A DNA stretch of 64,000 nt from Betaproteobacteria bacterium (GCA_947482825.1 CANKMT010000008.1:7634-71633), one strand, 5' to 3'. Counted from the first letter of the stretch, positions 2,667 to 38,415 are shown. Translations and numbers: made by a program. Notes: a model not told the origin generated them from the sequence alone.

Positions 2667-2858
2667 TGGCTCCTCCTTGACGTGCCGCGATTTTTGAATT
2701 CGACGCGGACCCGAAATGCTAGCTGAATTCGCCTACAATAGTGCAGACCGGTTCGCAGGCAATGCTCGTGGGGTGGATCTTTCGCGAGAGTGGTGGAGTT
2801 CGATTCGGTTGGGTCTGGCAAGCGGCATCCGATCTATTCGCGCTAAGGACATTCGCCG

Positions 2859-4145: not shown

Positions 4146-4162
4146 GTGCAGGGGGGCGCATC

Positions 4163-4693
4163 ATGCCTCTTATGAAGATCGAACGCGCGAATCTGGCGGT
4201 CACTTCGGCCGTCAGGACGGTCTGCAGCATCCTGCTCGTGTCGATGGTGGTGTTCACCGTCTATACAGTGGTGATGCGATACGTGTTCAGCAATCCGCCG
4301 TTCTGGGGGGACACTGTGTCGGTATTCTGCAATATCTGGGTCACGTTGCTCGGCTACAGCCTCGCGGTGCGCGACCGGGAAGATATCGCCCTGCGCGGGT
4401 TCTACAAACTCCTGTCCCCGAGAGCGGGCTTTCTGCTCGACATGTTCTGGAACGCGATGGTGTTTTCTTTCGGCCTGTACCTGCTGTGGTATGGATGGGC
4501 GGCCGCCGGAAACGTGCCCGGCATGTATTGGGAACTCGGCGGATTGCCGAAGTTGTATCCGATGCTGGTCTTGCCGATCGCCGGGTTCCTGATCGCAATG
4601 TCCGCGTCGATGGTGATTCTGGAAGACGCTTTGATCCTGCTGGGCAGGCGCCCGTCGCGCGATCTTACGTCGGCCGCTCAGGAGATGATCTGA
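4163..4693 (+). CDS. dctQ: TRAP transporter small permease (DctQ family)
   Basis: The ORF track starts at GTG 4115 inside dctM. I prefer ATG 4163 (MPLMKIERANL...), which is preceded by AGGGGGG. Four predicted TM segments and typical DctQ size. It is unusual in lying downstream of dctM. Confidence 0.8.
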   Translation: MPLMKIERANLAVTSAVRTVCSILLVSMVVFTVYTVVMRYVFSNPPFWGDTVSVFCNIWVTLLGYSLAVRDREDIALRGFYKLLSPRAGFLLDMFWNAMVFSFGLYLLWYGWAAAGNVPGMYWELGGLPKLYPMLVLPIAGFLIAMSASMVILEDALILLGRRPSRDLTSAAQEMI

Positions 4694-5478
4694 GGATCGG
4701 CCGTGTGCTGCGCGGGCTCTGTGCCGAAATTCTGCTGCCGTAGCCAGACCTTCACCTCCGCCGCGAGACGCACCATGGCCGGGTTAGTCGGGTCGCGCGG
4801 CCGCTCGAAATCGACCACCTTGATCTCTTCGACGCGTCCGGGCCGCGGCGCCATGATCGCGATGCGGTCCGAAAGCTTGATCGCCTCGTCGATGCTGTGC
4901 GTCACGAAGATCACCGTTTTGGGTTCGCGCTGCCAGATCTTGAGCAACTCGTCCTGCATGTATTCGCGCGTCTGGATATCGAGCGAGGCGAACGGCTCGT
5001 CCATCAGCAGGATGGAGGGATTGACCGCAAGCGCGCGCGCGATGCTGACGCGTTGGCGCATGCCTCCGGAGAGTTCCCTCGGGTAGCGTGATTCGAAACC
5101 CTGGAGGCCGACCAGCGCAATGTAGTGCTCGACCAGTCGCGATTGTTCGCTTTGCGACAGGCGCTTGCGCTGCAGTCCGTAGCGCACGTTCTGTGCAACC
5201 GTGTACCAGGGAAAAAGCGCGAACTCCTGGAACACGACCGCGCGCTCCCAACCGGGCTTGGAGATCAGTTCTCCCCCGACCCGCAGCTCACCGCGCGAAG
5301 GCTGCTCGAATCCGGCGAGCAGGTTGAGCAAGGTCGTCTTGCCGCAACCGCTCGGGCCGACGATCGAGAAGAATTCGTTTTTCTCCACTTCGAGATTGAC
5401 GTCGTGCAAGGCGAGCAAGGGCTCGCCCTTCATCGACACGTGCACTTTGCTCACATTGGAAACGCTGACCTGGGACAT
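4678..5478 (-). CDS. ABC transporter ATP-binding protein (NitT/TauT family)
   Basis: Walker A GPSGCGKTT, signature LSGGMRQR, Walker B LLMDEPF. Its 3' end overlaps the dctQ 3' end by 16 nt (convergent). Confidence 0.93.
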   Translation of the reverse strand: MSQVSVSNVSKVHVSMKGEPLLALHDVNLEVEKNEFFSIVGPSGCGKTTLLNLLAGFEQPSRGELRVGGELISKPGWERAVVFQEFALFPWYTVAQNVRYGLQRKRLSQSEQSRLVEHYIALVGLQGFESRYPRELSGGMRQRVSIARALAVNPSILLMDEPFASLDIQTREYMQDELLKIWQREPKTVIFVTHSIDEAIKLSDRIAIMAPRPGRVEEIKVVDFERPRDPTNPAMVRLAAEVKVWLRQQNFGTEPAQHTADPQIIS

Positions 5479-5500
5479 GATTTCTACCGAAGGTGGGCCG

Positions 5501-6364
5501 CTACTGGCCGCGGTGCCAGGGCATGACCAGCAACGCGGCCTTGCGCATCAGAAAGTCCAGCACCAGCCCCAGCACGCCGATCAGGACCATGCCCAGAAGA
5601 ATGTAGTCGCTGCGAAAAACGGTTCGCGCGTTGTTGATCATGAAGCCCAGTCCGCTCGGCGCGGCGACCAATTCGCCGGCGACGAGGGCCATCCACCCTA
5701 TGCCCAGGCCGATGCGCATGCCGGTGAATATGTTCGGAAGGGCGCCCGGGAGGACGACGGTGAAAAACAATTCTCCGGGGCGCGCACCGAGGCTGAGTCC
5801 CGCGCGCACCAGATAAGGCTCGACATCGCGCGCCCCGGCCATCGAGTTGAGGACGATCGGAAAGAACGCCGCAAGAAAAATAATGTAGACGATCTGAGTG
5901 TCGCCAATGCCGAACCAGAGAATGCTCAATGGAATCCAGGCCAGCGGCGGGATCGGACGGATGAATTCGATCAACGGATCGACCGCCTTGCGGAACTTCG
6001 GGGACCATCCCATCGCCAATCCCAGGGGTACGCCGATCAACGTGGCCGTACCCACCGCAGTGAGGACTCTTGAAAGACTGGCCAGCACGTGCGTGTGGAG
6101 TACTCCGCGTTCGATCAAATCCATCGCCGCGGAGAACACCGCCGTGGGCGGCGGCAGCATCACGTCAAGCTGCGGGTTGAAGCGCACGCCCAGCACGCTG
6201 ACGGTTTGCCAGACCGCGATGAACAGCACGAGCAGCCAAAAATCGCCGACCCGGGAAAGGACTCGCCGCCATCCCCCCGGCGGTGGCGGCACCATCGATG
6301 CCGCCAACTGCGCCAACTGCTCCGGGGTCGCCTTGATTCGTGTGGGGGAGACGGCCTCCGTCAT
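5501..6364 (-). CDS. ABC transporter permease (NitT/TauT family, BPD_transp_1)
   Basis: 287 aa, six TM segments, EAA-like loop. ATGA overlap with the upstream receptor gene. Confidence 0.9.
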   Translation of the reverse strand: MTEAVSPTRIKATPEQLAQLAASMVPPPPGGWRRVLSRVGDFWLLVLFIAVWQTVSVLGVRFNPQLDVMLPPPTAVFSAAMDLIERGVLHTHVLASLSRVLTAVGTATLIGVPLGLAMGWSPKFRKAVDPLIEFIRPIPPLAWIPLSILWFGIGDTQIVYIIFLAAFFPIVLNSMAGARDVEPYLVRAGLSLGARPGELFFTVVLPGALPNIFTGMRIGLGIGWMALVAGELVAAPSGLGFMINNARTVFRSDYILLGMVLIGVLGLVLDFLMRKAALLVMPWHRGQ

Positions 6365-7722
6365 GCCTTGTGGGTCTTTCCCATGAACGTCCAGGGCTTG
6401 GTGAGTTCACCCGCCTCTGGAAACGGCGCCGGTCCGCTCAACAGGCTTGCGCCGTAGGGTTTGTACGGCAGATTGCCCACGCCGCCAAAGTCCCGCGGCA
6501 GGAAAGGCGGCTTGTCGGGAACTTTCCAGCCCAGTTTCTCGAAAGTCCCGGCCATGTAGCGGGTGCGCCGCACATTGCGCCAATCTTCGTTGCTGACCTT
6601 ATTCTTCGAGGCCCCGGTCGAGTGGGCCCATTCGCTGATCCGCGTTTCTTCTTTAGGCCACAATCCGTTGGGATCGTCGAACGGGTAGTACACCGTCGGC
6701 TTGGGCCAGAACAGGTTGCGCTCGGACATCTTCTTGATCAGGTCGCGGCTCAGGCGCCCGTAGGCCGGCAGCGCCATCAGGGACGTGATCGCCTGTTCCT
6801 GATTGGCTTTGTTCCACAGCACGGCCTCCACGAACGCGTCGGTCATCGCCTGGGCCACGTCCGGTGCGTTTTCCTCGAGTTCGCGGCGCGTGTAGTAGTA
6901 CCCGCTGTAAATATAGTAAGGATCCAGCGCCTCGAGCATCCGGGTCGACTTGAGCACTTCGGTCGAATAGGAGACGTGCGGCTCCCAGATCGTGTACACG
7001 TCGAGGCCTTTCGGACCCGTGGCAAGATCGCCAGGCGGCGAGCTGCGCAGCGTGAAATCCTGGTTTTCCTTGAGGCCCAGGTAGTTCGCCGCAGCAATGA
7101 AGCCGAAATGGTTCGTCGACCCGGTGGTTGTGCCGACGATCGCCGGCCGTTTCAGCACCCTGGCGTCCTTGAGATCGGCCAGGCTTTTCAGCGGGGAGTC
7201 GAGCGGTACGGTCGCAGCGTGCGTGATTCCGGGCGAGTGCACGGCCAGCGCGCTGGTGGGCACCTTGTTGCTGATCAGGGCGAGGACGCCAAGACCGCCC
7301 GTACTCGCGAGCTGGATGCGTCCGGGAATGAAGGCTTCATTGGAAAATCCGGCGGCGACGAAGGTCTGCCACTTGACCTCGATGCCGCGCTTTTCCAGCA
7401 GCTTTTGGCTCTGCAGCGTGTGGTTGATCAGTTCCTGACCCGACCAAACCACGATCCAGGCCGCACTGATCGGCCACCAGCCTTTGCTTTCCAGCCATTG
7501 CCTGGATTTCGCCGAAATCTGTTCATAGGGGGTCGGCCATCCCCACTCGGTGAATTGCTGCGCCCCGGCCTGCGCTTGGGCGTTCCCAGTGCCCAGGAGA
7601 TTGCCCGCAATAAGGCCGCCCGCGGCTTTTGCCGCGTGGCCGAGGAATTTCCTCCGATCCACTCCGGCTTTCGTTTCAACGGGCACTGCGGGGCGATCGT
7701 CGTCTGACTCGAATGAGCTCAT
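6361..7722 (-). CDS. ABC transporter periplasmic substrate-binding protein (NMT1/THI5-like), Tat signal
   Basis: 453 aa. Twin-arginine signal (VDRRKFLGHAAKAAGG). AAGGAGAAGG Shine-Dalgarno upstream of the ATG. Confidence 0.85.
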   Translation of the reverse strand: MSSFESDDDRPAVPVETKAGVDRRKFLGHAAKAAGGLIAGNLLGTGNAQAQAGAQQFTEWGWPTPYEQISAKSRQWLESKGWWPISAAWIVVWSGQELINHTLQSQKLLEKRGIEVKWQTFVAAGFSNEAFIPGRIQLASTGGLGVLALISNKVPTSALAVHSPGITHAATVPLDSPLKSLADLKDARVLKRPAIVGTTTGSTNHFGFIAAANYLGLKENQDFTLRSSPPGDLATGPKGLDVYTIWEPHVSYSTEVLKSTRMLEALDPYYIYSGYYYTRRELEENAPDVAQAMTDAFVEAVLWNKANQEQAITSLMALPAYGRLSRDLIKKMSERNLFWPKPTVYYPFDDPNGLWPKEETRISEWAHSTGASKNKVSNEDWRNVRRTRYMAGTFEKLGWKVPDKPPFLPRDFGGVGNLPYKPYGASLLSGPAPFPEAGELTKPWTFMGKTHKA

Positions 7723-7888
7723 TGCGCCTTCTCCTTGGTCGAATTGAGATCCTTATTTCCGCTTTTTGACGGGCGCCCGCGAGTCTTTGCGGAGCCAGCT
7801 TCCGGCGCCGCTGTCACGGTTCTTTTTTTCCGCGGACCGGCGGGAAGTATCGCGGGAGGTTTCTTCCAGTGTCAATCGGCATTGCGAA

Positions 7889-9229
7889 TCATCGGGACCG
7901 CACCACCAATCCCGCGTGCTCCAGAAATGCCGCGAACCCCAGAACGTCGGCGTCGCCAAGGCGCCTGGCGTTGACCTGCACGCCGATGGGCAGGCCGCGA
8001 GCGCCGGTCAATGCCGGCACCGACAGCGCCGGCGCGCCGGTGAACGTCCAGATCGTCTGCATGACCGGATCGCCGGTCATTGCGAGCGTGGCCGGCGCCT
8101 CCCCGGTGGCCGCAAGGCCGACGGTTACATCCAGTGAGTCGAACACCTTGTCCATCGAGGCTTGCGCCCAGGACTGAAACTGGCGTGCTTCGGCGATTCG
8201 GGACTGTGTGAGCGCGTGTCCGCGTCTAATATTCTCGCTCAGCGAGACACTGAAATTTTCGGGGTTCCGGGCCGCGCTCTCATATAGGTGCGCTGCAACA
8301 CCGGCATCCTGGAGAACCATATGGTGACCGTGAAGCAATTCGAATCCGGAAGGCAATTCGAGATCGACGACTTCGACGAAACCTTTTAACCGGGATACGA
8401 AGTCTTCCATGCGCCCTCGCGCATCGTCATCGCAACGTCCCCAGACGGGCGTGCGGCAAAAGCCGACGCGCCAGCGCCGCTGCGGCCCGTGCCGCACCGC
8501 ATCCTGCAATCCACCCATGCGAATTCCGAGACTGCCGGGATCTTCGGGATCGGGTCCGATCAAGGTTTCCAATGCAATCGCCAGACCTTCCAGATCGCGG
8601 CAAAACAGGCCCGGCGTGTCGACTTCCGCAGCGATCGGCTGCAACCCGGTGCGCGACAACAGACCGTAGGTCGGCTTAACGCCGTACACGCCGCAATAGG
8701 ACGCCGGACGCAGCATCGAACCGTTGGTCTGCGACCCGAACGCGAGCGGGACCATGAACGCCGCGACTGCAGCGGCCGAACCCGAGGAACTGCCTCCCGG
8801 TGTATGGGCCGGATTGTGCGGATTGCGGGTGGCGCCGGGATGCAAAAGAGCATATTCGGTCGTCACCGTCTTTCCCATTACGATCGCGCCTGCCTTACGC
8901 GCCAGTTCGACCAGTCGTGCGTCGTGGGCGGGACGCCGACCACGCCAATGAAGGCCGCCCCATTCGGTGGGAAAATCCGCCGTGTCGTACGTGTCTTTTA
9001 CCCCCAGCGGCAAACCATGCAACGGCCCGCGCGAAGTTCGGGGCGCCGCGTCCGCCTGTTCTGCCAGATGCATGGCACGCGATTCATCCAGCGCCGCCCA
9101 CGCTTTCAACTCCGGTTCACGCGAACGAATGTGCGCCAGCATCGCGCGCATCAGTTCCGCGCAAGTGAGGCTGCCGTCCCGGATTCGGCGCAACGCGTCG
9201 CCGGCATCCAGGCGATTTGCGCCGTTCAC
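7889..9229 (-). CDS. amidase (amidase-signature family)
   Basis: GGSSSGSAAAV signature with GVKD and TNGS catalytic motifs. The ORF-track start (9304) overlaps the upstream gene by 79 nt. A GTG at 9229 gives a GTGA start/stop overlap and a normal AS-family N-terminus (VNGANRLDAGDALRRIRDGSLTCAEL). Confidence 0.88.
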   Translation of the reverse strand: MNGANRLDAGDALRRIRDGSLTCAELMRAMLAHIRSREPELKAWAALDESRAMHLAEQADAAPRTSRGPLHGLPLGVKDTYDTADFPTEWGGLHWRGRRPAHDARLVELARKAGAIVMGKTVTTEYALLHPGATRNPHNPAHTPGGSSSGSAAAVAAFMVPLAFGSQTNGSMLRPASYCGVYGVKPTYGLLSRTGLQPIAAEVDTPGLFCRDLEGLAIALETLIGPDPEDPGSLGIRMGGLQDAVRHGPQRRWRVGFCRTPVWGRCDDDARGRMEDFVSRLKGFVEVVDLELPSGFELLHGHHMVLQDAGVAAHLYESAARNPENFSVSLSENIRRGHALTQSRIAEARQFQSWAQASMDKVFDSLDVTVGLAATGEAPATLAMTGDPVMQTIWTFTGAPALSVPALTGARGLPIGVQVNARRLGDADVLGFAAFLEHAGLVVRSR

Positions 9230-9735
9230 GTCGATACTCGCCTGAGCAGTGCGCGCGTGAACGCGCCGTCGAACCAGGCATTTTTCGCCAGCCGCGCGAA
9301 CCACGCCGTGGACCGGGAGAATTTTCGCTCCGCGCTATCGAGCGCACTCTTGTCCGACATCTGGTGCATGGCGTAGAACTGGCACCCGTTCGCGACTTTC
9401 CGCTCCACGAACCGGCACCCGCTCCAGATCGGGCATTCGAGCAGGATGGGCATGTGCTCGATCTTGTACCAGGCGAGAAACTCCTCCCTGAAATCCTGCG
9501 GCGTCCATAGGCCCACGTAGAAAAGCCAGTCGCCGCCCGACGCCCCGAAGTCACCGCCCGTGAACAGGATGCTTGCGTCGAATTCCGCGCTCGCACCCGC
9601 CGGCTTCGCGCTTTCGCTCACCACCATGCCGCCTTTGGCGTCATCGCGCAAATAGGGCTCGGCATCGCTGCCGAGCCCGATCGCATGGCGACGAATTTCC
9701 ACCGCATCCGCCGTCGATAAATCCCGGATCAGCAC
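9226..9735 (-). CDS. hypothetical protein, EthD/DUF4286-like dimeric alpha/beta-barrel C-terminal domain (paralogue of 12358-12858)
   Basis: 169 aa with a GTG start. The C-terminal ~100 aa (FREEFLAWYKIEHMPILLECPIWSGCRF...WFARLAKNAWFD) align with the 12358-12858 product. The F-x2-WY-x2-EH-x-P-x-LL pattern resembles EthD-type barrels. Confidence 0.6.
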   Translation of the reverse strand: MLIRDLSTADAVEIRRHAIGLGSDAEPYLRDDAKGGMVVSESAKPAGASAEFDASILFTGGDFGASGGDWLFYVGLWTPQDFREEFLAWYKIEHMPILLECPIWSGCRFVERKVANGCQFYAMHQMSDKSALDSAERKFSRSTAWFARLAKNAWFDGAFTRALLRRVST

Positions 9736-9770
9736 GCGGCCACCCGTTCTGATTCGCGCGCCACGGGGCC

Positions 9771-10820
9771 TTACAAGGCGCCCACCGTCTGAAGTTTCTT
9801 GATCAGTTCATCCTGCCCCTGTTCCTGGAGCACGCGGCGCGCAAGCGCGGGATCATAGGTTCCTTTGACGGAGAGCCAAGCCGCCGGCGCACCGCCATAC
9901 CAAAGCTGCAGTTCGGCCGCGGTCGGTTTGTAGATCTTTACCTTCCCATCGAGAATCTTGGTATTGCGTGCGGTCCACTCGGCATCGATCTTGAAGCTGT
10001 CCGCGCGGATTTCCTTACCGATCCGATCGAGTATCTGCTTTGCCGCCGGAGGAAGCTTGTCGTAGCGCTTGTTGTCGATAAACAGGATGTGCGCGTTCCA
10101 GGCCCCGCCGGTCTGTGTGATGAATTTCGACACTTCGTAGAATTTTTGTGCCGCCACATAAGCGTCGGGAATATACATTCCGTCCACCACGCCGTTCTGC
10201 AGGCCTTCGTATAGCTGCGCCCAGTCGTAGGGCACGGCCACGCCGCCCCAGGTCTTGACGAGATTCAATTCCACCGGCGACTTGGTCACCCGGAACTTGA
10301 TGCCCTTGGTATCGGCGGGCACGCGGATCTCGCGCTTCGAATTGTCGAGATTGCGAAAACCGTAGGAGGGGATGATGGCGATGAAACGCAATCCGAGTTC
10401 CTTTTCGGCGCGCTTGGTCAATTCCTCGCCCAGCCAGCCGTTGACCAGTTTTTCCGCCGCCGCGTCGTCTTTGAATATGTAGGGCAGATTGAGAATATCC
10501 ACGGTCGGGCCGAACGCGCCGATATTGGCGCCCGAGACCGAGCCGATGTCAATCTGCCCCAACTTCGCCTGCTCTACGCACTTGTGCTCCGAACAAAGCG
10601 TATTTGCGCCCTGATGATTCGCCGTAATGCTGCCCTTCGAGTACTCCTCGAGTTTGGCGGACAGGTAGTTGAACCAATGGGTGGTGGGAATGGTCGGAGG
10701 ATTTCCGTGCGCCAGCGTAAGACGCATCTTGTCCTGACCCCAGGCACTCGGTGCGAGTGCGGCCGCAAGAGCGCATGCGGCAAGCAAACAATGCATTCGA
10801 ATGTGAATTTTAGTTTTCAT
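9771..10820 (-). CDS. dctP: TRAP transporter substrate-binding protein (DctP family)
   Basis: Start moved to ATG 10820 (MKTKIHIRMHCLLAACALAAALAPSAWG signal peptide), preceded by GAGGAGG. DctP-family body. Confidence 0.88.
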   Translation of the reverse strand: MKTKIHIRMHCLLAACALAAALAPSAWGQDKMRLTLAHGNPPTIPTTHWFNYLSAKLEEYSKGSITANHQGANTLCSEHKCVEQAKLGQIDIGSVSGANIGAFGPTVDILNLPYIFKDDAAAEKLVNGWLGEELTKRAEKELGLRFIAIIPSYGFRNLDNSKREIRVPADTKGIKFRVTKSPVELNLVKTWGGVAVPYDWAQLYEGLQNGVVDGMYIPDAYVAAQKFYEVSKFITQTGGAWNAHILFIDNKRYDKLPPAAKQILDRIGKEIRADSFKIDAEWTARNTKILDGKVKIYKPTAAELQLWYGGAPAAWLSVKGTYDPALARRVLQEQGQDELIKKLQTVGAL

Positions 10821-10879
10821 CCTTGCCTCCTCAGTCAAACGAAAAAACCCGCACGCCTCCAAGCGGCGGGATCCGAAAC

Positions 10880-12349: not shown

Positions 12350-12357
12350 GATGGCCT

Positions 12358-12858
12358 CTAGAGCGGTTTCATCAGCGTGCGAACGAACTGTTTGTCGAAC
12401 CAGGCGTGCTGCTTGAGGCGGTGCCACCAGGGTGTGTCGACCGAGCGGTTGCGCGCATCCGACTTGAGTGCCTGGGGTTCGAGATAATGCAACGCGGCGA
12501 AGCTATACGACGAGGCGCCCAGCGCGCGAAAGAATTCGCAGCCGTACCAGGTGGGCTCCTCCAGCAGCATCGGCATGTGCTCGTACTGGAACCAGGCGTC
12601 GAATTCGTAGTGGTAGTCGAACGGCACCGGATACTTAAGCATGTAGACGATCGGGCCGCGCTGCTCCGATCCGCAGCGATAGATCCGAACGCCTTGCCAG
12701 GTGGTCGCGAGAGGTCCGGCCTTTTGGCGCGGTGCCGCGAGGGCGGCTTCGCCCCGAACGAGCAGCACGCTGCCTTCGCGGCCTTCCGGTGCGTACCACT
12801 CTCCTTTGCCGGGACTTTCCGGTCGGCCCGGAAATTCCGAAATTCGAACATAACTCAT
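12358..12858 (-). CDS. hypothetical protein, EthD/DUF4286-like (paralogue of 9226-9735)
   Basis: Start at ATG 12858 (MSYVRISEF...) forms an ATGA overlap with the ligase stop. The C-terminus reads YEFDAWFQYEHMPMLLEEPTWYGCEFF...WWHRLKQHAWFD. The longer track ORF (to 13266) is an R-rich extension that overlaps the ligase gene. Confidence 0.65.
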   Translation of the reverse strand: MSYVRISEFPGRPESPGKGEWYAPEGREGSVLLVRGEAALAAPRQKAGPLATTWQGVRIYRCGSEQRGPIVYMLKYPVPFDYHYEFDAWFQYEHMPMLLEEPTWYGCEFFRALGASSYSFAALHYLEPQALKSDARNRSVDTPWWHRLKQHAWFDKQFVRTLMKPL

Positions 12859-14438
12859 ACGGTGGTCTCCGGTAGCTTGTCCTGCCTCGCCGCGGCGGCC
12901 AGTTCCGCGCGCAGTTGCTTCTTGTCGATCTTGCCGTTGGCGGTCTTCGGCAATGCCGGTACGAAAGTGAACTTGCGCGGCTTTTTGTAGCCTGCCATCG
13001 ACTGGGCGCAATGGCGCGAGATCGACTCGGGATCCTCCTCGGCGTCCGACCGAATCACGATTACGGCTTGCACGGTCTCGCCCCAAACCGGATCGGCGCT
13101 CCCGATCACCGCGCACTCCGCCACTGCGGGATGCCGGTACAGAACGTCCTCGACTTCGCGTGGATAAACGTTGTATCCGCCGGAAATGATCATGTCTTTC
13201 TTCCGGTCGACGATGTAATAGAACCCCTGAGCATCGATTCGCGCCATGTCTCCGGTGTAACACCAATCTTCGCGCAGCGTCAGTTCAGTCGCCAACGGAT
13301 CGCCCCAATAGCCTGTCATCACATGCTCGCCCGCGATGATGATTTCGCCAACTTCGCCCGGCTTTACGTCCGCACCTTCCTCGTCGACCAGCCGCATGCG
13401 CACGCCCGTGGCCAATCGGCCCGCGGCGCCGACGGCCTTGCGCTTGCCGGTGACGGGGTCCGGCAGGTGATCTTCCTTGGCGAGCACCAGGTCCGGCTGC
13501 GGCGCCTCGGTCAGTCCGTAGATCTGCACAAATATTGGACCAAAGGCCGCCAGCGCGCGCTCGAGCACCGGCTCGGGCATCGGCGCCCCTCCGTAGATGA
13601 TGGTTCGCAGGCTGCTCAAATCGTAAGCGACGCGATCCTCGGCGTCGCAAAGCATGGCGACGATCGTGGGCACCATCCAACTGATGCTGACGCGATGCGT
13701 TTGCACAAGACGGAAGAATTCGCCCGGCGAAAATTTCGGCATCAGAACGTTCTTCGCGCCCTTCACGTAAAGCGGCAGCACCTTGGTTCCGCTGCCGTGC
13801 GCCAACGAGGCCACGTGCAACATGACGTCGCCCTCGGCGACGAACATCTCGTTGGCAAGCGTATGGAACAACATCGCCCAACGCGAGCGAACGTTGGTCA
13901 AAGCGCCCTTCGGCCGCCCCGTCGTTCCCGAGGTATACCCCAGCATGTAGCCGTCTGAAGCCTCTGTGTCGGTGGCGAAGGTTTTCTCCGCGCCCTGTTC
14001 GAGCACGTCGCGCCAGAGCAACGCATCCGAAACGCCGGGCAAGGCATCGACGGCGATGATGGGCCTCGGCCCGGCGATGAGTGAGCGGCTCGACTGCAAT
14101 GCCCCGGCGTAAGCGCTGCACGTGATCAATGCCGCCGCCGAGCAGTGCGTGACGATGAACTCGATTTCCGCGCCGGTAAATCGGGGATTCACCGGCACCC
14201 GGATCAGACCCGCCTTGATCAGGGCAAAATCGGCGATCACGAATTCCGCGCAATTGGGTAGCAGCACCGCGACCCGATCGCCTTTTTTCAGGCCGTACAC
14301 GAGGCAGAGCGCGGAGGCCAGGCGATTGCTGGCGGCCTCCACCTGGGCGAATGTGAACGAGCGCTCCGCGTCGATCACCGCCACGCGAGCGGCGTGCTCG
14401 CGCCCGGCGCGAGAAATCAGTTCGGCCAGAGCGTTCAT
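12855..14438 (-). CDS. AMP-dependent acyl-CoA synthetase/ligase (ANL superfamily)
   Basis: YTSGTTGRPKG (A3), GYWGD, YTGD and SGGYNVYP motifs, plus the terminal PKTANGKIDK lysine. Confidence 0.92.
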   Translation of the reverse strand: MNALAELISRAGREHAARVAVIDAERSFTFAQVEAASNRLASALCLVYGLKKGDRVAVLLPNCAEFVIADFALIKAGLIRVPVNPRFTGAEIEFIVTHCSAAALITCSAYAGALQSSRSLIAGPRPIIAVDALPGVSDALLWRDVLEQGAEKTFATDTEASDGYMLGYTSGTTGRPKGALTNVRSRWAMLFHTLANEMFVAEGDVMLHVASLAHGSGTKVLPLYVKGAKNVLMPKFSPGEFFRLVQTHRVSISWMVPTIVAMLCDAEDRVAYDLSSLRTIIYGGAPMPEPVLERALAAFGPIFVQIYGLTEAPQPDLVLAKEDHLPDPVTGKRKAVGAAGRLATGVRMRLVDEEGADVKPGEVGEIIIAGEHVMTGYWGDPLATELTLREDWCYTGDMARIDAQGFYYIVDRKKDMIISGGYNVYPREVEDVLYRHPAVAECAVIGSADPVWGETVQAVIVIRSDAEEDPESISRHCAQSMAGYKKPRKFTFVPALPKTANGKIDKKQLRAELAAAARQDKLPETTV

Positions 14439-14459
14439 CGCGCGCGCCGGCCCGCGAAC

Positions 14460-15605
14460 TCAGCCGTCCCGGCCGAGGATCACGGTGGCATTGCCGGCGA
14501 CCACACCGCCAAAGCCATGCACCAACGCTCGCCGCGTGTTTTCCACTTGGCGTTTGCCGCACTCGTTGCGCAGTTGCCTCACCGCCTCGACCAGAAGGAA
14601 GATGCCGAACATGCCTGGATGGCAATATCGTAGACCCCCGCCCGAGGTGTTCACCGGCAGCTTGGAGCCCGGACCGATGCCGCGATCGACCATCCGCCCG
14701 CCCTCGCCCTTGGCGCAAAAGCCCAGATCTTCGAGACCGAGCAGGACCATGATCGTAAAAGCATCGTAGATCTGCACCACATCCATGTCTTTCGGTCCGA
14801 GACCGGCCATTTCATAGGCGGCGCGGCCGGACTCGACACCCGCGGTCGCCGTGTAGCTTCTCATGTTGCTCACGTAGCAATGGCTGTGGCTCTCCCCGGT
14901 GCCGAGCACGCTGATGGCGGGTTTGCGCAGTTTCTTCGCGCGATCCCGGCTGGTCAGAACGATGGCGCCGCCGCCGTTGGTGACGAGGCAGATATCCAGC
15001 TTGCGCAACGGGTCGCTGATCAGCGGCGAGGCGAGCACGTCGGCAACGCTAATCGCCTCAGGTTTGAGCGCGTCCGGATTGAGCGAGGCCCACTGGCTCG
15101 CGCTGACCGCCACCTGCGCGAGCTGCTCGCGCGTGGTGCCGTGCTCGTACATATGGCGCTGCATCAGCATCGCATATCCGGAAATCGGAAACAGCGCGCC
15201 ATAGGGACGCTCGAACGGAAGGATGTCGGCGCCGGTGACCAGTTTGCCGCCATCGGAGCGTTGCGTGCTTGCGTACGCGATCACCGCCACTTCGCATTGC
15301 CCAGACACGATCGCGCGCACTGCATGACCCACATGGGCCACTACCGATGCGCCGCCGATGTTGGTCGAATCGGTGACCTTGGGTTGGATGCCCAATTGAT
15401 CGGCAAGCGTAGCCGAAGGCATCCAGTAGTAGGGCGTCACGGCGAACACCCCGTCCACGTCGCGCACGCTCAGGCCAGCCTCGTCCAGGGCGCTCAATAC
15501 GGCTTCGGCCATGATTTCCGAAACGCTGTTGCCGGTCTCCCACCCGATCCCCGCGGTGGCCGCGCCGACGATCGATACCTGCCCGGAAAGATGCGTCTGG
15601 CTCAT
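14460..15605 (-). CDS. thiolase-fold protein (SCP-x/Ltp2-like) lacking the nucleophilic cysteine
   Basis: 381 aa thiolase-like fold. The position of the Cys nucleophile reads TNIGGASVV (Gly instead of Cys). The C-terminal CHPG is present, but the terminal C-x-G motif reads HGFGG. 4-nt overlap with the DUF35 gene. Confidence 0.8.
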   Translation of the reverse strand: MSQTHLSGQVSIVGAATAGIGWETGNSVSEIMAEAVLSALDEAGLSVRDVDGVFAVTPYYWMPSATLADQLGIQPKVTDSTNIGGASVVAHVGHAVRAIVSGQCEVAVIAYASTQRSDGGKLVTGADILPFERPYGALFPISGYAMLMQRHMYEHGTTREQLAQVAVSASQWASLNPDALKPEAISVADVLASPLISDPLRKLDICLVTNGGGAIVLTSRDRAKKLRKPAISVLGTGESHSHCYVSNMRSYTATAGVESGRAAYEMAGLGPKDMDVVQIYDAFTIMVLLGLEDLGFCAKGEGGRMVDRGIGPGSKLPVNTSGGGLRYCHPGMFGIFLLVEAVRQLRNECGKRQVENTRRALVHGFGGVVAGNATVILGRDG

Positions 15606-16027
15606 TTCGCGCTCCCCGCCGGCCGAAACATTGGAATCGCGAGGTTTTCGCCTGCCGCTTCGAACACGACCTCGACCCGCATTCCGATTTTCACCGAGTC
15701 GACCGGACAGTCCACGACGTTGGTCATCATCCGCGGCCCTTCGTCGAGCTCAACCATCGCCACCGCATAGGGAACCCGGGTCTTGAAAAAAGGATCTCCC
15801 GACTGCCTGACCACCGTGAAGGTATGCACCGTACCGCCGCCCGAACCCTTGATCCAGTCGACCCGATTCGAGCCGCAATGCGGGCAACGCGGGCGCGGAT
15901 GCCAGAAAGTGCGTGCGCAGGCCGTGCATTTGGGGACCAGCAAGCTACCTTCGGCGGCGGCCTTCCAGAACTTTTCCCCCGCATTCCTGGTTTCGGGAAG
16001 CGGGCGCGACGGAGTTTTCTCAGACAT
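15602..16027 (-). CDS. DUF35 Zn-ribbon/OB-fold protein
   Basis: 141 aa with CTAC...CPHC rubredoxin-like knuckles followed by an OB-fold. This is the classic partner of SCP-x-type thiolase-like proteins. Confidence 0.85.
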   Translation of the reverse strand: MSEKTPSRPLPETRNAGEKFWKAAAEGSLLVPKCTACARTFWHPRPRCPHCGSNRVDWIKGSGGGTVHTFTVVRQSGDPFFKTRVPYAVAMVELDEGPRMMTNVVDCPVDSVKIGMRVEVVFEAAGENLAIPMFRPAGSAK

Positions 16028-16104
16028 CGAACGACCTTTGGCGGTGCGGTGGACGCGTGCCGTCAGGCTGCATCCGTGTCGCGTTCGGGGATTGGATCAT
16101 TTGC

Positions 16105-17553
16105 TTATCGGCCGACCATGAGTTCGGTCCCCGCAAACCGCAGCTTCATGCGGCCCAGGCCGGTCTGACTGCCCAGGTAATGGACCAACTCGTTCAGCGG
16201 GGTCGTCCGATGCGCGTGGGGCTTTTCCGCGCGCACGCGAAGCGGCGCAAGCAGCCCCTTTTCGTAGAAAGCCGCCAGCAGGATGTCTTCGTCATCCGCC
16301 CCGGCGCCCAACTCTTTGCGCAAACGAGGGATCCACGGCTCGACGTGGGCGCCCGCTCGCCCGTGCGCCAAAGCACCCGGCTCGACTTGCGCGCGCTCCA
16401 GAAACTCCTTGCACGGCGTCGCGGCCAGGCGGCCGTAGTAGCCCATCGCGTACTTGCGAACTTCGTCGGGGATGGTTTTGTAGCGCTCGCCGGAAACGAC
16501 GTTAATCACCGCCTGGGTGACGACGTACTGCGCAAACGGGCTCACCAGGATCGGGTAACCGAGATCCTCACGCACCCGCCCCACCTCTTCGAGGATCTCG
16601 GGCAGGCGATGTCCCATGCTCATGGTCTCGAGTTGGGATTTCAGATTCGAGATCATGCCGCCCGGAACTTGATGGGAATACAGCGCCGGGTCGTAGGCCA
16701 CCGCCTTGCCGCGGGGCTTGTCTTCCCGCACGCACAGCCAGTTGAAGTAACCGCTGATTTCCGCGATCGCCTCCATGTTCAGGCCGGTTTCCACGCCAAG
16801 TTCGGCCGCGCGCCGGGCGATGTCTTCCACCGCCGGCAAGGACGCTCCGTTGGCCAGCGGCATGACCGCCGTATGCACGTAATGAAATCCCGCCTTGATC
16901 GCCTCGCTATAGACTTCCGGCGCGAGCGTGGACTGACAGTGCGAATGCAATTCGACGTGCTTGCCGCCCGCGGCCTGCATCACCACGGGAAAGAGCGTCT
17001 TCGCACGCTCCGGGGTCAACAAGCCCGTCGGATCCTTTACGCCGACGCGGTCCGCGCCCAGCGCGACCAACTCCCGAATGCGCTCGGCATAGTAGGCGTC
17101 CGTGTGCACCGGGCTGACCGTGTACACGGTGACCGCGGTTACGTTCATGCCGACGGCTTTGGCCGATGAAATCGGCACCTCGACGTTGCGGTTGTCGTTG
17201 ATCGCGTCGTAGACGGTGACGCTTTTCATCCCGTTGCGGGCGAGGACCTTGGAATTGAGCTCGACGATGTCGTCCGGAAAGAGCTCGAACGTATAGAGAC
17301 TCTGCCCTCTCAGAAACGTATCGGCGGGTGTGCGCAGATTCGCGCAGAGAGCTTCCACGCGACGCCAGGGGTTTTCATGCAAAAATCGCACGCAGACGTC
17401 GAATACCGCTCCACCCAGGACATTCACATAGTCATAGCCGGCCCGGTCGATGGCCGGCAGGATCGGCGCCATCATCGCCGAGGTCATCCGCGTCGCCCAC
17501 AGGCACTGATGGCCGTCCCGGAGCGTCACGTCGATGAAGCCCAGCCGCGGCAC
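16105..17553 (-). CDS. 5S-type carboxyltransferase subunit, paralogue 2
   Basis: IDVTLRDGHQCLWATRM, VKDPTGLL, LHSHCQS. 482 aa with no BCCP domain. Starts 3 nt after the BCCP stop. Confidence 0.87.
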   Translation of the reverse strand: MPRLGFIDVTLRDGHQCLWATRMTSAMMAPILPAIDRAGYDYVNVLGGAVFDVCVRFLHENPWRRVEALCANLRTPADTFLRGQSLYTFELFPDDIVELNSKVLARNGMKSVTVYDAINDNRNVEVPISSAKAVGMNVTAVTVYTVSPVHTDAYYAERIRELVALGADRVGVKDPTGLLTPERAKTLFPVVMQAAGGKHVELHSHCQSTLAPEVYSEAIKAGFHYVHTAVMPLANGASLPAVEDIARRAAELGVETGLNMEAIAEISGYFNWLCVREDKPRGKAVAYDPALYSHQVPGGMISNLKSQLETMSMGHRLPEILEEVGRVREDLGYPILVSPFAQYVVTQAVINVVSGERYKTIPDEVRKYAMGYYGRLAATPCKEFLERAQVEPGALAHGRAGAHVEPWIPRLRKELGAGADDEDILLAAFYEKGLLAPLRVRAEKPHAHRTTPLNELVHYLGSQTGLGRMKLRFAGTELMVGR

Positions 17554-17556
17554 GAA

Positions 17557-18078
17557 TCATCCCTTCGGGTCGATGACGATCAAGGCCTGTCCCACGTCGA
17601 CCGGCTCTGCGTCGCCGACCAGAATATGGGTCACCCGGCCGGCGCAGCCGGCGGGCATCGAGTTCATCAGTTTCATGACCTCGATAATGCAAACGATCGC
17701 ATCGGCCTCGACTTTCTGCCCAACCTCGACGAACGGCTTGGCGCCCGGTTCCGGCGAACGATAAAACGTGCCCACCATGGGCGATCTGACTACCGTCGAG
17801 CCGGCCGGGAAATCGATTGCTGCGGCGCGGGGCGCGCCTTTCGGCGTTGCAGGCACCGAGGCCGCAGTTGCGGGTGCGAGTGCGGGTGTGGTTGAGGGTG
17901 CGATCGTAGCCATCGGCGGCGCAACCGGCACCGTCGCGGCATTCGCCCCGGCCCCGGACTTGCGCAAATCGAGTTCGATCTCACCGACTTTCAGGTGGAA
18001 TTCGGAAAACGACTCCGCGGATTTGATCAGTTCGACGATCTGCAACAGGTCGTCGTAGCTCAGGATTTCCTTTCCCAC
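17557..18078 (-). CDS. accB: biotin carboxyl carrier protein (AccB architecture)
   Basis: 173 aa: N-terminal domain, Ala/Pro-rich linker and a biotinyl domain with the CIIEVMKLMN (E-x-MK-x-M) biotinylation motif. Confidence 0.9.
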   Translation of the reverse strand: MGKEILSYDDLLQIVELIKSAESFSEFHLKVGEIELDLRKSGAGANAATVPVAPPMATIAPSTTPALAPATAASVPATPKGAPRAAAIDFPAGSTVVRSPMVGTFYRSPEPGAKPFVEVGQKVEADAIVCIIEVMKLMNSMPAGCAGRVTHILVGDAEPVDVGQALIVIDPKG

Positions 18079-18329
18079 CGGACGGTCTCCCTGGTTTTAT
18101 GGTCGTTACACCGTGCGCGCCGGCTTTGACGCCGCACGCGAATGCAGGCTCGCTCTCTATTGTGCGAGCGATGCATTCTAAGCATAAACCGCCCGCGTGC
18201 CCCGGCCCGTGAAACCGGTCCGGTTCCGGCAATCACCGGCCGATAGAGTAAACACGCAATCTACAATAAGCTTGTACTGTTTCGCATTCGTCCTTCTCCC
18301 GTGCGGCGGCCCATGGAAGGCACATAAAC

Positions 18330-19775
18330 ATGAACAGTCAAAGCGCCGGCAGCGACTTCGGACTGATCGACGTCACGCTGCGCGACGCCCATCAATGCCT
18401 CTGGTCGACGCGGATGACCACGGCGATGATGACGCCCATCCTCGCCGCGCTCGACAAAGTCGGCTACGCGTACCTCAACATCATGGGCGGCGCGGTGTTC
18501 GACGTGTCCGTGAGGTTTCTACACGAGGATCCGTACGAGCGCGTGCGGCTTTTGTGCAGCCGTCTGGCCACGCCGTGCGATGCGCTCACTCGCGGCCAGA
18601 GTCTGTACACGTTCGAACTGTTTCCGGACGACATCGTCGCGCTGAACTCCGAGGTGCTGGGCAGGCTCGGCGTGAAGGTGCTGACGGTCTACGACGCGCT
18701 CAACGACAACCGGAACATCGAGTCCTCCCTGCGCTCGGGTCATGCCGCCGGCATGAAGGTCAACGCCATGATGACCTACACCTTGAGCCCGGTGCATACC
18801 GACGCCTACTACGTGGAGCGCACGATCGAATTGCGCACGATGGGCAGCGATTTCATTTCGATCAAAGATCCCACCGGACTGCTGACTCCCGAGCGCGCGC
18901 GCACGCTTTTCCCGGCAGTCGTCCAGGCCGCGGGCGCAATTCCGGTGAAGCTGCATTCTCATTGCCAGTCGGGCCTGGCGCCGCAGGTCTATCAGATCGC
19001 CATCGAGTCGGGGTTTCGTTACGCCTACACCGCGTCGGAGCCCCTCGCCAATGGCGCTTCGCTCCCCGCCAGCGAGGACATCGATACGCGCGCCACCCGC
19101 ATCGACCGCGGCCGCCTGGCGGAAGTCTCCGGGTACTTCGCCTGGCTGGCCGAGCGCGAAGGCAAGCCGCTCGGACGCGTCGCCAAATTCGACCCGGCGC
19201 TCTACGAGCACCAGGTGCCGGGCGGGATGATCTCCAATTTGCGCTCGCAACTTCAGGTCATGGGCATCGAGCATCGCCTTCCGGAAATTCTCGAGGAAGC
19301 GGCTCAGGTCCGCCGAGACCTGGGATACCCGATCCTCGTGAGCCCCTTCGCGCAGTACATCATCACCCAGGCCGTGCTCAATGTCGTGCAGGGCGAGCGT
19401 TACAAGACAATTCCGGACGAGGTCCGCAAGTACGCAATGGGCTATTACGGCCGTCTGGCCGCGCAGCCTGCGGCCACGTTTCTCGAGCGGGCCAATTTCC
19501 GGCCCGACGAGTTCGTGACGGAGCGGTCCGCGGAGCATCTCGCGCCCTGGCTGCCTCGGCCGCGCGCCGAGTTGGGCTCCAGTGCGCGGGACGAGGACCT
19601 TTTGCTTGCCGCGTTTTACGACAAGGCACTGCTCGCGCCGCTGAAAAAACCCGCCCCCGCATACCAGTTCCGAACCTGGCCTCTGTATGAACTGATCCGC
19701 TATGTGGGAACCCGTTCCGACATCGACCGGGCGACCCTGCGTTTCGCGGGAACAGAGATGACGTTTACCGCGTGA
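18330..19775 (+). CDS. 5S-type carboxyltransferase subunit, paralogue 3 (divergently transcribed)
   Basis: IDVTLRDAHQCLWSTRM, IKDPTGLL, LHSHCQS. Closest to paralogue 2 by eye. Confidence 0.87.
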   Translation: MNSQSAGSDFGLIDVTLRDAHQCLWSTRMTTAMMTPILAALDKVGYAYLNIMGGAVFDVSVRFLHEDPYERVRLLCSRLATPCDALTRGQSLYTFELFPDDIVALNSEVLGRLGVKVLTVYDALNDNRNIESSLRSGHAAGMKVNAMMTYTLSPVHTDAYYVERTIELRTMGSDFISIKDPTGLLTPERARTLFPAVVQAAGAIPVKLHSHCQSGLAPQVYQIAIESGFRYAYTASEPLANGASLPASEDIDTRATRIDRGRLAEVSGYFAWLAEREGKPLGRVAKFDPALYEHQVPGGMISNLRSQLQVMGIEHRLPEILEEAAQVRRDLGYPILVSPFAQYIITQAVLNVVQGERYKTIPDEVRKYAMGYYGRLAAQPAATFLERANFRPDEFVTERSAEHLAPWLPRPRAELGSSARDEDLLLAAFYDKALLAPLKKPAPAYQFRTWPLYELIRYVGTRSDIDRATLRFAGTEMTFTA

Positions 19776-19817
19776 TCCTCGCGCCACGACGAACCGCGTG
19801 AACGCGCTTAAAGGGCC

Positions 19818-20552: not shown

Positions 20553-20577
20553 GAGGCACGCATCCCAACCGGCTGGG

Positions 20578-21327: not shown

Positions 21328-21421
21328 GGCTGCAATATCCTGTGAAGGCGGTCCGGTGGTCGAGGCCGTTGCGCGCGCGGACACGGTTCAGCCGCTGCCC
21401 CGCGCAATCGGGAAGTGCTTT

Positions 21422-29271: not shown

Positions 29272-29293
29272 CGCTGAGGAGACTGACTGGCGC

Positions 29294-31330: not shown

Positions 31331-31403
31331 CTCTCTGTCCCCAGAATGAAAAGCCCCGCCAGAAGCCTGGACGGGGTCCGGGGTCCCGGGTCCGCGCGTC
31401 CGG

Positions 31404-32426: not shown

Positions 32427-32548
32427 ACTGTCTCCTTGGGGAAGTGCGCTCTGGGTGGCACTCAATGAAGCCGGGATTCTACCTTTACTTGCCTCGTACG
32501 GCTCCAGCCCGGGCCGCGGGAGGCGGCGGTCCGGCGGGGGGCGCGGAA

Positions 32549-38388: not shown

Positions 38389-38394
38389 TGACAA

Positions 38395-38414: not shown

Positions 38415-38415
38415 C

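Follow-up and report, generated by a model that had tools for sequence, protein, structure and literature searches.

A split biotin-dependent carboxylase in a betaproteobacterial gene island that most likely serves organosulfonate catabolism

The gene block described here is built around a split biotin-dependent carboxylase and lies in a 64,000-nucleotide stretch of DNA (the window; GCA_947482825.1, CANKMT010000008.1:7634-71633) from an uncultured soil betaproteobacterium. Gene calls and domains were taken from an open reading frame (ORF) listing together with Pfam and NCBIfam scans of the 64-kb window. Thirteen co-directional genes run on the minus strand from position 18078 down to 4678, in the order biotin carboxyl carrier protein (BCCP), carboxyltransferase (CT) 2, DUF35 protein, thiolase-like protein, AMP-forming ligase, X2, CT1, DctP, X1, amidase, and then the solute-binding protein, permease, and ATPase of an ATP-binding cassette (ABC) transporter. 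From BCCP downwards, the junctions computed from the coordinates measure 3, 77, -4, 21, -4, 8, 59, 35, -4, 166, -4, and 22 nt. Between BCCP and CT3 lies a 251-bp spacer (18079-18329), from which CT3 and a TauE-family gene diverge on the plus strand. This arrangement had been put forward in an original prediction made by reading the sequence alone, and the ORF coordinates bear out the 13-gene block with its divergent CT3-TauE pair and the 251-bp spacer, while the recomputed junctions agree with its range of -4 to 77 nt and one 166-nt gap. Profile searches likewise recovered every domain it had named (HMGL-like, PYC_OADA, Biotin_lipoyl, DUF35, and Thiolase_C_1), together with AMP-binding, Amidase, DctP, ABC components, and TauE, and no regulator, which it had also reported as absent, occurs among the Pfam and NCBIfam assignments in the block. 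An Rfam scan of the whole window returned no RNA family and thus no riboswitch clue, and in a promoter and terminator scan of positions 4400-21600 nothing exceeded shuffled expectation (two promoter-like matches found, 3.2 expected). As set out below, we hold with moderate confidence that the block belongs to a catabolic island, centered on an ATP- and biotin-dependent carboxylase of separate subunits, which acts on a small and anionic carbonyl compound that is most probably sulfonated.

The carboxylase is encoded by several genes. Three CTs, namely CT1 (10880-12349, minus), CT2 (16105-17553, minus), and CT3 (18330-19775, plus), all carry the HMGL-like and PYC_OADA domains, and Biotin_lipoyl is present in none of them. 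The biotin-bearing subunit is instead a free-standing BCCP (17557-18078, minus), recognized by TIGR00531 (134 bits against a cutoff of 115) and by Biotin_lipoyl, with the biotinylation motif EVMKLM. No Carboxyl_trans (12S) and no KipI/KipA domain occurs in the block, so that the claim that its only CTs are three 5S/PycB-type paralogues without a fused BCCP, with 12S- and KipI/KipA-type CTs absent, agrees with the domain content. CT3, the CT of the widespread part of the locus, is the ancestral carboxylase partner, while CT1 is a second, rarer CT, always flanked by X2 and X1; its orthologues share 72-83% identity with it in X2-type loci, against 64-66% in marine Gammaproteobacteria. CT2 is a recent duplicate of CT3 (64% identity) and a variable component, found among the relatives compared only in the window and in loci L005, L011, L014, and L030 (related loci are given by number throughout).

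In alignment, CT1-3 retain the LRDxHQ, RGQ, KD(P), HxH, and PGGMxSN motifs, and with them the metal ligands (Asp, carbamyl-Lys, and His-x-His) and the pyruvate-binding Arg, Gln, and Arg. They differ by a signature of small changes, in which HQSL becomes HQCLW, RGQN becomes RGQS, and KDM becomes KDP. Like PycA/PycB, OadA, and the 5S subunit, they have the same CT fold and every catalytic and pyruvate-binding motif, and their best Protein Data Bank (PDB) matches are 5ks8_C, 2nx9, and 1rqb. Unlike those enzymes, they have no fused BCCP and no OadB/G or 12S partner, and the Pfam and NCBIfam scans found no OadB- or OadG-type membrane subunit. Their scores fall far under every PycB/OadA/5S equivalog cutoff (PRK14041, 389 against 734; TIGR01108, 432 against 756), the domain-level PRK09282 being the only model of this type that they pass. 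That the CTs reach no PycB, OadA, or 5S equivalog threshold supports the original prediction on this point.

A biotin carboxylase (BC) was found through a motif scan, which placed GGGGRGM at the left edge of the window. Its gene starts at 542 on the minus strand and is cut by that edge, leaving the N-terminal 180 residues (1-542; MSKPIKRILIANRGEIAVRI...GGGGRGM). On the same contig in the public assembly (L001) the BC is complete, with 450 aa and the Biotin_carb_N, CPSase_L_D2, and Biotin_carb_C domains. The BC start lies 12 nt past a gene for a 703-aa ADP-forming acyl-CoA synthetase (555-2666, minus; CoA_binding_2, Succ_CoA_lig, and ATP-grasp_5), directly upstream of BC, and homologues of this synthetase are present in the related carboxylase clusters L024, L025, L027, and L067. 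We infer that the BC belongs to the carboxylase system from the gene order BCCP-BC-CT3 in relatives, which 13 of 39 metagenomic loci share with L007, L027, and L028. With separate BC, BCCP, and CT subunits found, and their order conserved, the description of the enzyme as a split biotin-dependent carboxylase holds.

Next to the CTs lies a pair of genes for a thiolase-fold protein (14460-15605, minus; Thiolase_C_1) and its DUF35 partner (15602-16027, minus), which overlap by 4 nt. The DUF35 protein has zf-ChsH2 and OB_ChsH2_C domains with a Cys4 zinc ribbon (C-x2-C-x10-C-x2-C). The thiolase-like protein had been called Cys-less, correctly, for it reads NIGGAS, with Gly for Cys, in place of the C-A-S-G nucleophile motif, while YDAF replaces HDCF and a third motif reads YCHPGM. 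Its tyrosines align with the catalytic Tyr294 and Tyr344 of Ltp2, where the roles of the catalytic residues have been described (PMC12329534). This Cys-less/YDAF/Tyr signature is invariant across all CT1-linked thiolase-like homologues, and the thiolases of L021, L024, and elsewhere in the window are canonical. The nearest functional parallels are the steroid side-chain retro-aldolases Ltp2-ChsH2(DUF35) and Sal-Shy(DUF35), which share the Cys-less thiolase fold, a YDxF motif with a catalytic Tyr, and a zinc-ribbon DUF35 partner. Of the features that define this type, the protein shows the loss of Cys, the YDxF Tyr, and a Tyr as second catalytic residue (Tyr344 in Ltp2, in place of which Sal has Cys304), and it is thus a putative retro-aldolase. 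The third motif residue is Ala, in contrast to His in Ltp2 and Cys in Sal, which makes the site Ltp2-like rather than Sal-like, and the closest structure is the uncharacterized 4u4e. No MaoC-type hydratase or steroid genes occur in the window or its relatives. In L005 (6652-8298) the DUF35 and thiolase-like proteins are fused into one 548-aa polypeptide, which supports a physical complex of the two proteins. The pair is followed by the AMP-forming acyl-CoA ligase (12855-14438, minus; AMP-binding and AMP-binding_C), which passes no NCBIfam equivalog threshold and for which a PDB search gave remote or generic matches only, with no ligand assignment.

The conservation of these genes across genomes indicates that the locus is composite. 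Eighty metagenomic CT3 loci were mapped by tblastn, and the counts that follow are loci with the feature out of the loci informative for it. BCCP lies directly upstream of CT3 in 58 of 66, with BC between the two in the 13 of 39 already mentioned. A divergent gene for a β-keto acid cleavage enzyme (BKACE) is present in 26 of 31, TauE downstream of CT3 in 17 of 28, a short-chain dehydrogenase (SDR) downstream of CT3 in 16 of 28, and an SsuA/TauA-like ABC system in 17 of 30. The X2/CT1 module, by comparison, is found in one of 30 CT3 loci, and an IclR regulator accompanies about 35 of the 80. By these counts, the window consists of a widespread Module A (BKACE, BCCP-(BC)-CT3, SsuA/TauA-like ABC system, TauE, and SDRs, with an IclR regulator) that has received an insertion, the rare Module B (DUF35, Cys-less thiolase-like protein, AMP-ligase, X2, CT1, and X1). 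At 73% identity or higher, CT3 relatives fall into more than 120 protein clusters; metagenomic relatives number at least 509, and a homologue (WP_206996637.1) is present in cultured Trinickia mobilis. X2, by contrast, marks only eight loci among 185,579 species genomes, all of them metagenome-assembled genomes (MAGs); seven of the eight hosts are Burkholderiales or other Betaproteobacteria/Pseudomonadota and one is labeled Alphaproteobacteria.

The order DUF35, thiolase-like, AMP-ligase, X2, CT1, X1 is kept in all eight X2 loci, usually with ABC genes after it, BCCP (with or without CT2) before it, and CT3-TauE diverging. The gene order of the block, which had been proposed as conserved, is indeed kept in about 15 independent loci, with X2 49-78% identical. 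The block as a unit is accordingly conserved in order, but it is not a single ancestral unit, given that Module B is present in one of 30 CT3 loci. BKACE lies between CT3 and BCCP in nearly every X2-type relative, and tblastn found neither BKACE (PF05853) nor a remnant of it in the 64-kb window. Compared with its relatives, the window has thus had CT3 duplicated (giving CT2), BKACE lost, and an amidase gained. Plasmid searches with X2, CT1, and CT3 yielded no orthologous locus, only clusters with CT identity of 43% or less and distant DUF4286 proteins, and literature searches yielded nothing describing this locus family. The locus has no cultured or biochemically studied representative.

The marker of Module B, X2 (12358-12858, minus), is a 166-aa protein with a tandem ferredoxin-like fold, and X1 (9226-9735, minus), a small ferredoxin-like (Dabb-fold) protein, is its paralogue (43% identity over the C-terminal 88 residues). 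An ORF at 12372-12851, taken earlier as 'EthD-like 2', lies in the wrong reading frame and was replaced by the gene at 12358-12858. The label 'EthD-like' holds at the level of the fold only: neither X1 nor X2 matches EthD (Pfam PF07110), and DUF4286 matches them weakly (E 0.013-0.021, 16 bits against a cutoff of 26), but the AlphaFold model of X2 (predicted local distance difference test, pLDDT, 92.5) is a tandem ferredoxin-like barrel for which Foldseek returns ABM/Dabb proteins at template modeling (TM) scores of 0.6-0.7. X2 homologues are few, 69 among 5.8 billion proteins, and a profile search among 1.84 billion gave 14 representatives at E<=1e-30. In Module B relatives, X1 always follows CT1 (or DctP). 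Three metagenomic Module A loci (L056, L061, and L082) carry X1-like proteins that are 46-48% identical, beside DctP or CT3 and without X2 or CT1, from which X1 may not be a CT1-specific subunit.

Several transporters surround the carboxylase. The ABC importer consists of an ATPase (4678-5478, minus; best family TauB/SaoA-like), a permease (5501-6364, minus; best family TauC-like), and a solute-binding protein with a twin-arginine translocation (Tat) signal (6361-7722, minus; best family SsuA_fam), and is 72-88% identical in relatives. The PDB matches of the binding protein are to TauA and SsuA only and are remote, giving no ligand assignment. A role of the system as a bicarbonate importer (CmpA/NrtA-like) was considered and rejected, as the binding proteins match SsuA and TauA only. 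A tripartite ATP-independent periplasmic (TRAP) solute-binding protein, DctP (9771-10820, minus; Pfam DctP, E 2e-54), is a variable component of the block, and its nearest structures are DctP proteins with uncharacterized ligands and an isethionate-binding DctP, again remote or generic and without a ligand assignment. The TRAP membrane subunits DctM (2859-4145) and DctQ (4163-4693) are encoded on the plus strand (2859-4693; Pfam DctM and DctQ), convergent with the block, and their position is kept in L005 and L023. TauE (19818-20552, plus; Pfam TauE, E 5e-29) is a TauE/SafE-family (TSUP) anion permease co-directional with CT3.

Beyond TauE lies the short-chain dehydrogenase SDR_R (20578-21384, minus; adh_short_C2), a member of Module A with orthologues 53-82% identical in L023, L028, and many metagenomic loci. 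A second SDR, encoded beyond BC on the contig of the window (L001), scores 311 bits with the 3-hydroxybutyrate dehydrogenase subfamily model, above its threshold of 258. The amidase-signature amidase (7889-9229, minus; Pfam Amidase, E 1e-77) has the AtzE family as its best NCBIfam match, at 223 bits against a cutoff of 461, and occurs only in the window lineage and L023. As most relatives are without it, the amidase is accessory rather than core. Its candidacy as a core enzyme, by analogy with urea amidolyase, was rejected on the same ground.

Evidence for the substrate comes from the gene neighborhood of the relatives. When the unassigned ORFs of the 80 CT3 loci were clustered without prior bias and then scanned with NCBIfam, the aldehyde dehydrogenase adjoining BKACE proved to be SauS, the acylating sulfoacetaldehyde dehydrogenase (775-777 bits, equivalog cutoff 600), which lies directly downstream of BKACE in L027, L052, L073, and L101. 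A recurring thiamine pyrophosphate enzyme is Xsc, sulfoacetaldehyde acetyltransferase (919-935 bits, equivalog cutoff 676), found in L043, L045, L081, L093, and L097, and together with Pta in the marine CT1-type locus L022. About 10 Module A loci have SauS, Xsc, or both, and the solute-binding proteins match only SsuA and TauA. The inventory of block genes in the original prediction was sound, but it missed the BC gene, the two SDR genes, and this link to the sulfonate genes SauS and Xsc, all of which lie outside the block. We consider that the locus most likely serves organosulfonate catabolism, with the substrate proposed from gene neighborhood. BKACE converts R-CO-CH2-COO- and acetyl-CoA to R-CO-SCoA and acetoacetate (PMC11961710). 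Since SauS shares the operon of BKACE, and Xsc and TauE lie nearby, the acyl-CoA formed by BKACE is probably sulfoacetyl-CoA, which would make the β-keto acid 3-oxo-4-sulfobutanoate and the substrate of the carboxylase sulfoacetone (2-oxopropane-1-sulfonate).

A pathway can be proposed on this basis. The SsuA/TauA-like ABC system and the TRAP system would import the substrate, and one SDR would oxidize a secondary alcohol to the ketone, sulfoacetone. BC, BCCP, and CT3/CT2 would then act together, the CT, judging from the chemistry of its family, carboxylating the carbon next to the carbonyl to give a β-keto acid. In relatives, the divergent BKACE would convert this β-keto acid and acetyl-CoA to an acyl-CoA (sulfoacetyl-CoA) and acetoacetate. 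BKACE is missing from the window, and a reductive route is proposed there for that reason. In it, the SDR resembling 3-hydroxybutyrate dehydrogenase would reduce the β-keto acid to a 3-hydroxy acid, the AMP-ligase would convert this to its CoA ester, and the Cys-less thiolase-like/DUF35 enzyme would cleave the ester in a retro-aldol reaction to acetyl-CoA and sulfoacetaldehyde. Xsc, encoded outside the window, would desulfonate sulfoacetaldehyde to sulfite, and TauE would export the sulfite. The retro-aldol scheme explains both the Cys-less thiolase and the conservation of the SDRs.

A number of observations weigh against this proposal. SauS and Xsc are absent from the 64-kb window, which has only TauE and the SsuA/TauA-like ABC system, and they are also absent from the X2-type (Module B) loci, up to 10 kb to either side. 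Sulfoacetone catabolism is not described in the literature searched. In relatives, BKACE scores 454-468 bits with the NCBIfam equivalog model for 3-oxoadipate:acetyl-CoA acetyltransferase, above its cutoff of 350. The CTs have retained the residues to which the carboxylate of pyruvate binds, and this suits a 2-oxo acid at least as well as it suits sulfoacetone. BC is missing from two thirds of Module A operons, and the BC of the window lies about 17 kb from the BCCP gene, 4 kb past the far end of the block, in a separate operon. The roles of CT1, CT2, X1, X2, the amidase, and the mutase described below are unexplained, and the retro-aldol scheme leaves the ADP-forming ligase without explanation as well as CT1, X1, X2, and the amidase. 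Finally, all Module B loci come from uncultured organisms.

The mutase in question is encoded further along the minus strand, by genes that Pfam identifies as a glutamate-mutase-like MutE (23851-25386), MutL (25328-26740), and MutS (26737-27177), preceded in coordinate order by an FrdA/NadB-like flavoprotein (22119-23849); all four are possibly linked to the block. In marine Gammaproteobacteria (L022 3801-7187, L025 1240-4581, and L026 1166-4684), orthologues of the mutase set (70-71%, 64-66%, and 76% identity) are encoded within a few kb of CT1 orthologues. These clusters also hold BCCP, SDR, DUF35, a further CT, and a pair of Cys-less thiolase-like proteins, and in L022 the mutase genes are directly beside Xsc-Pta. 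In C. cochlearium glutamate mutase, the substrate is bound by an 'arginine claw' of Arg66, Arg100, and Arg149 together with Glu171. MutE, which is 38% identical to Clostridium cochlearium GlmE, keeps Arg66 and Arg100 but has Leu in place of both Arg149 and Glu171, as have the three marine orthologues, and is therefore probably not a glutamate mutase. Judging from its sequence, the enzyme is probably a B12 mutase acting on another substrate, perhaps within the pathway of the carboxylase block.

Taken to its full extent, the sulfonate proposal amounts to a new catabolic use of CO2 fixation, in which sulfoacetone would be carboxylated to 3-oxo-4-sulfobutanoate, to be cut either by BKACE (to sulfoacetyl-CoA, followed by SauS and Xsc) or by the reduction, CoA-ligation, and retro-aldolase route of the window to sulfoacetaldehyde. 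The rare version of the system would add a second CT and X1/X2 subunits, seemingly linked to a B12 enzyme of the glutamate mutase family with a new substrate. In this detailed form the proposal is tentative, a possibility that we rate at well short of even.

Other explanations deserve consideration. That the Module A BKACE passes the 3-oxoadipate equivalog is what would be expected if the carboxylase acted on levulinate (4-oxopentanoate) or a similar 4-oxo acid to give 3-oxoadipate, which BKACE would convert to succinyl-CoA and acetoacetate, the sulfonate genes then being chance neighbors or serving a parallel substrate. PcaR/BhcR-type IclR regulators accompany Module A and a 3-oxoacid CoA-transferase lies nearby in L027, both in line with this view. 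However, SauS shares an operon with BKACE in no fewer than four loci, and Xsc, TauE, and binding proteins of the SsuA/TauA-like type are met repeatedly, none of which has a role with levulinate; moreover, the 3-oxoadipate name of the equivalog presumably stems from an in-vitro panel that contained no sulfonated β-keto acid. We regard a levulinate-type substrate as unlikely. The active site of the CTs raises a different option, since CT1-3 keep all the pyruvate-binding motifs of pyruvate carboxylase, OadA, and 5S, and the CTs of aryl ketone carboxylases are without RGQ. The enzyme could on this view carboxylate a 2-oxo acid (pyruvate or 2-oxobutyrate), with SDR reduction, CoA ligation, and cleavage by the thiolase-fold aldolase to glyoxylate and an acyl-CoA, much as in malyl-CoA lyase, and with a possible connection through methylaspartate or methyloxaloacetate to the mutase- and NadB-like enzymes. 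Here the ADP-forming ligase of the succinyl-CoA synthetase superfamily beside BC would fit, as would the MutSLE and FrdA/NadB-like genes adjoining the block, MutSLE recurring with CT1 orthologues. Yet the product of BKACE would be an odd one (oxalyl-CoA), SauS, Xsc, TauE, and the SsuA-like binding protein are left unaccounted for, methylaspartate is an unlikely substrate for a mutase in which Arg149 and Glu171 are missing, and the CT scores lie far below the PycB, OadA, and 5S equivalog cutoffs. Such a 2-oxo-acid carboxylase seems to us quite improbable.

The presence of several CT paralogues alongside one BCCP in the window, the lack of BC in two thirds of Module A operons, and the absence of a 12S-type CT would all suit an ATP-independent decarboxylase or transcarboxylase, in which one 5S-type CT moves CO2 from a β-keto acid onto BCCP, and another CT passes it to an acceptor, or the CO2 is released, with no involvement of BC. 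Most Module A loci, however, have a single CT, making transcarboxylation impossible there, while a third of loci have BC in the operon between BCCP and CT3, and for these reasons we consider this reading very unlikely; nor is there a membrane subunit of the OadB or OadG type. As for a chance juxtaposition of unrelated operons (transporter and amidase, CoA-ligase and thiolase, carboxylase), the 166-nt gap before the transporter genes contains a promoter-like match, and amidase, DctP, and CT2 are variable. Against this, promoter-like matches number 2 where 3.2 are expected, and the order DUF35-thiolase-like-ligase-X2-CT1-X1-ABC is kept in about 15 loci at 49-78% X2 identity. Chance juxtaposition is thus largely refuted by synteny, and we give it hardly any credence. 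A sulfonated carbonyl substrate remains our preferred reading.

The original prediction had also held that no characterized pathway was known in which such a carboxylase is accompanied by a CoA ligase and a DUF35/thiolase module. This no longer holds, as the Xcc, Hpe, and Acv systems and the plasmid clusters L020 and L021 show such combinations. HpeCBA and XccACB are three-subunit aryl-methyl-ketone carboxylases with PycB-like CTs (PMC9618137), as is AcvCDE, and the CTs of the Xcc, Hpe, and Acv enzymes share about 42-55% identity (bioRxiv 10.1101/2022.04.28.489975). The system described here resembles AcvCDE with VceA/VceB of Sphingobium sp. SYK-6 in having a separate BCCP, BC, and PycB-like CT with no fused BCCP, and the carboxylation of a methyl ketone to a β-keto acid by AcvCDE is the same reaction as proposed here. 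The plasmid of Sphingomonas bisphenolicum (L020) carries an Acv-like cluster in the order thioesterase-BKACE-...-BCCP-BC-CT-HAD, in which the BKACE-family gene beside the thioesterase gene would take the β-keto acid to an acyl-CoA and on to the free acid. Acv differs, however, in its aromatic ketone substrate, acetovanillone, and in its need for the kinase AcvAB and the haloacid dehalogenase (HAD)-type phosphatase AcvF, both absent here. It also lacks sulfonate genes, X proteins, an aldolase-type thiolase, and an ABC importer, and the Acv-type CT has lost RGQ and is 31-35% identical to the CTs here. HpeCBA (Rhodococcus) and XccACB (Aromatoleum aromaticum EbN1) are similar in having three subunits, followed by a β-ketoacyl-CoA synthetase and then a hydrolase or thiolase, but they are carboxylases of 4-hydroxyacetophenone/acetovanillone, with aromatic substrates whose phenol must be phosphorylated.

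A related cluster on a Rhodococcus oxybenzonivorans plasmid (L021) reads AMP-ligase-...-kinase-BCCP-BC-CT-DUF35-thiolase-phosphatase. Its thiolase keeps the catalytic Cys (ENACASG, HDAF), in contrast to the Cys-less protein here, and its Hpe-like CT is 35-37% identical to the CTs here. The identity of CT1-3 to the Acv-like and Hpe-like plasmid CTs (31-37%) is thus below the 42-55% within that family, and the active-site motifs differ. In the L021 CT (6956-8455), the position of the carbamylated lysine is Glu (EDAAG) and the RDxHQ His reads Pro in the alignment; these changes could stem from the alignment itself, as an artefact, or reflect a metal site that truly differs in aryl ketone CTs. Neither a kinase (phosphoenolpyruvate-utilizing or Tm-1-like) nor a phosphatase was found in the block, its flanks, or related loci, although both are present in L020 and L021. 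A further point of comparison is the sulfoacetate pathway of Cupriavidus necator H16, which comprises SauS(T,U) with Xsc, Pta, and TauE. Relatives of the window likewise carry equivalog-level SauS and Xsc along with TauE, and the proposed route converges on the same intermediates, sulfoacetyl-CoA and sulfoacetaldehyde. The difference is that sulfoacetyl-CoA would arise from BKACE cleavage of a carboxylation product, rather than from a sulfoacetate-CoA ligase, and that the window itself has neither SauS nor Xsc.

Some further observations concern related loci and the flanks. On its flanks (871-3384 and 20313-21203), L023, a Module B locus without BCCP or CT3, has genes for two TauD-family dioxygenases, an FMO-like protein, and an ATP sulfurylase, which again hints at sulfur or sulfonate metabolism. 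L024 (GCA_040960975.1, 1-13574) has no X proteins and encodes an NMT1-type binding protein, two permeases, an ATPase, BCCP, a CT, a true thiolase, an ADP-forming ligase, an AMP-ligase, a second CT, BC, and a second BCCP, which suggests a wider family of two-CT carboxylase pathways. On a plasmid of Burkholderia sp. THE68 (L018, 11980-22845), an orphan PycB-type carboxylase is encoded by a CT-accB-accC operon with 43% CT identity, followed by DUF485/ActP, carbonic anhydrase, and a full bioAFDB set, with an acetoacetate decarboxylase gene upstream. The FrdA/NadB/TfrA-like flavoprotein keeps its place beside TauE in three lineages, the window, L005 (1-1251), and L030 (12291-13994), at 66-73% identity. 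Upstream of the mutase genes in the window (28192-34536, minus) lie genes for a member of the enolase superfamily (MR_MLE), a fused TRAP permease with a TAXI-type (NMT1_3) binding protein, a TctC receptor, and a luciferase-like monooxygenase; in the marine clusters, too, MutS is preceded by a luciferase-like gene. A separate-looking catabolic cluster on the plus strand (34985-40675) encodes an AMP-ligase, an aldo/keto reductase, an SCP-x-type thiolase with a normal Cys (EAACAS, HDCF), and a nitronate-monooxygenase-like protein.

To our knowledge, pyruvate, oxaloacetate, and 2-oxoglutarate were for a long time the only substrates known for biotin-dependent carboxylases with PycB-type CTs, to which phosphorylated aryl methyl ketones have lately been added. 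The system described here is a new variant among biotin-dependent ketone carboxylases, set apart by the absence of a kinase and phosphatase, canonical CT motifs, an aldolase-type thiolase, X1/X2, importers, and TauE. Candidate new activities are a sulfonated-ketone carboxylase, a BKACE that makes sulfoacetyl-CoA, a non-steroid Ltp2-type aldolase, the X1/X2 proteins, and a B12 enzyme with a changed pocket. The locus family is abundant in soil and freshwater metagenomes, as the at least 509 CT3 relatives attest, and if its substrate is indeed an aliphatic sulfonated compound, it would provide a new entry into the sulfoacetaldehyde hub of the sulfur cycle.

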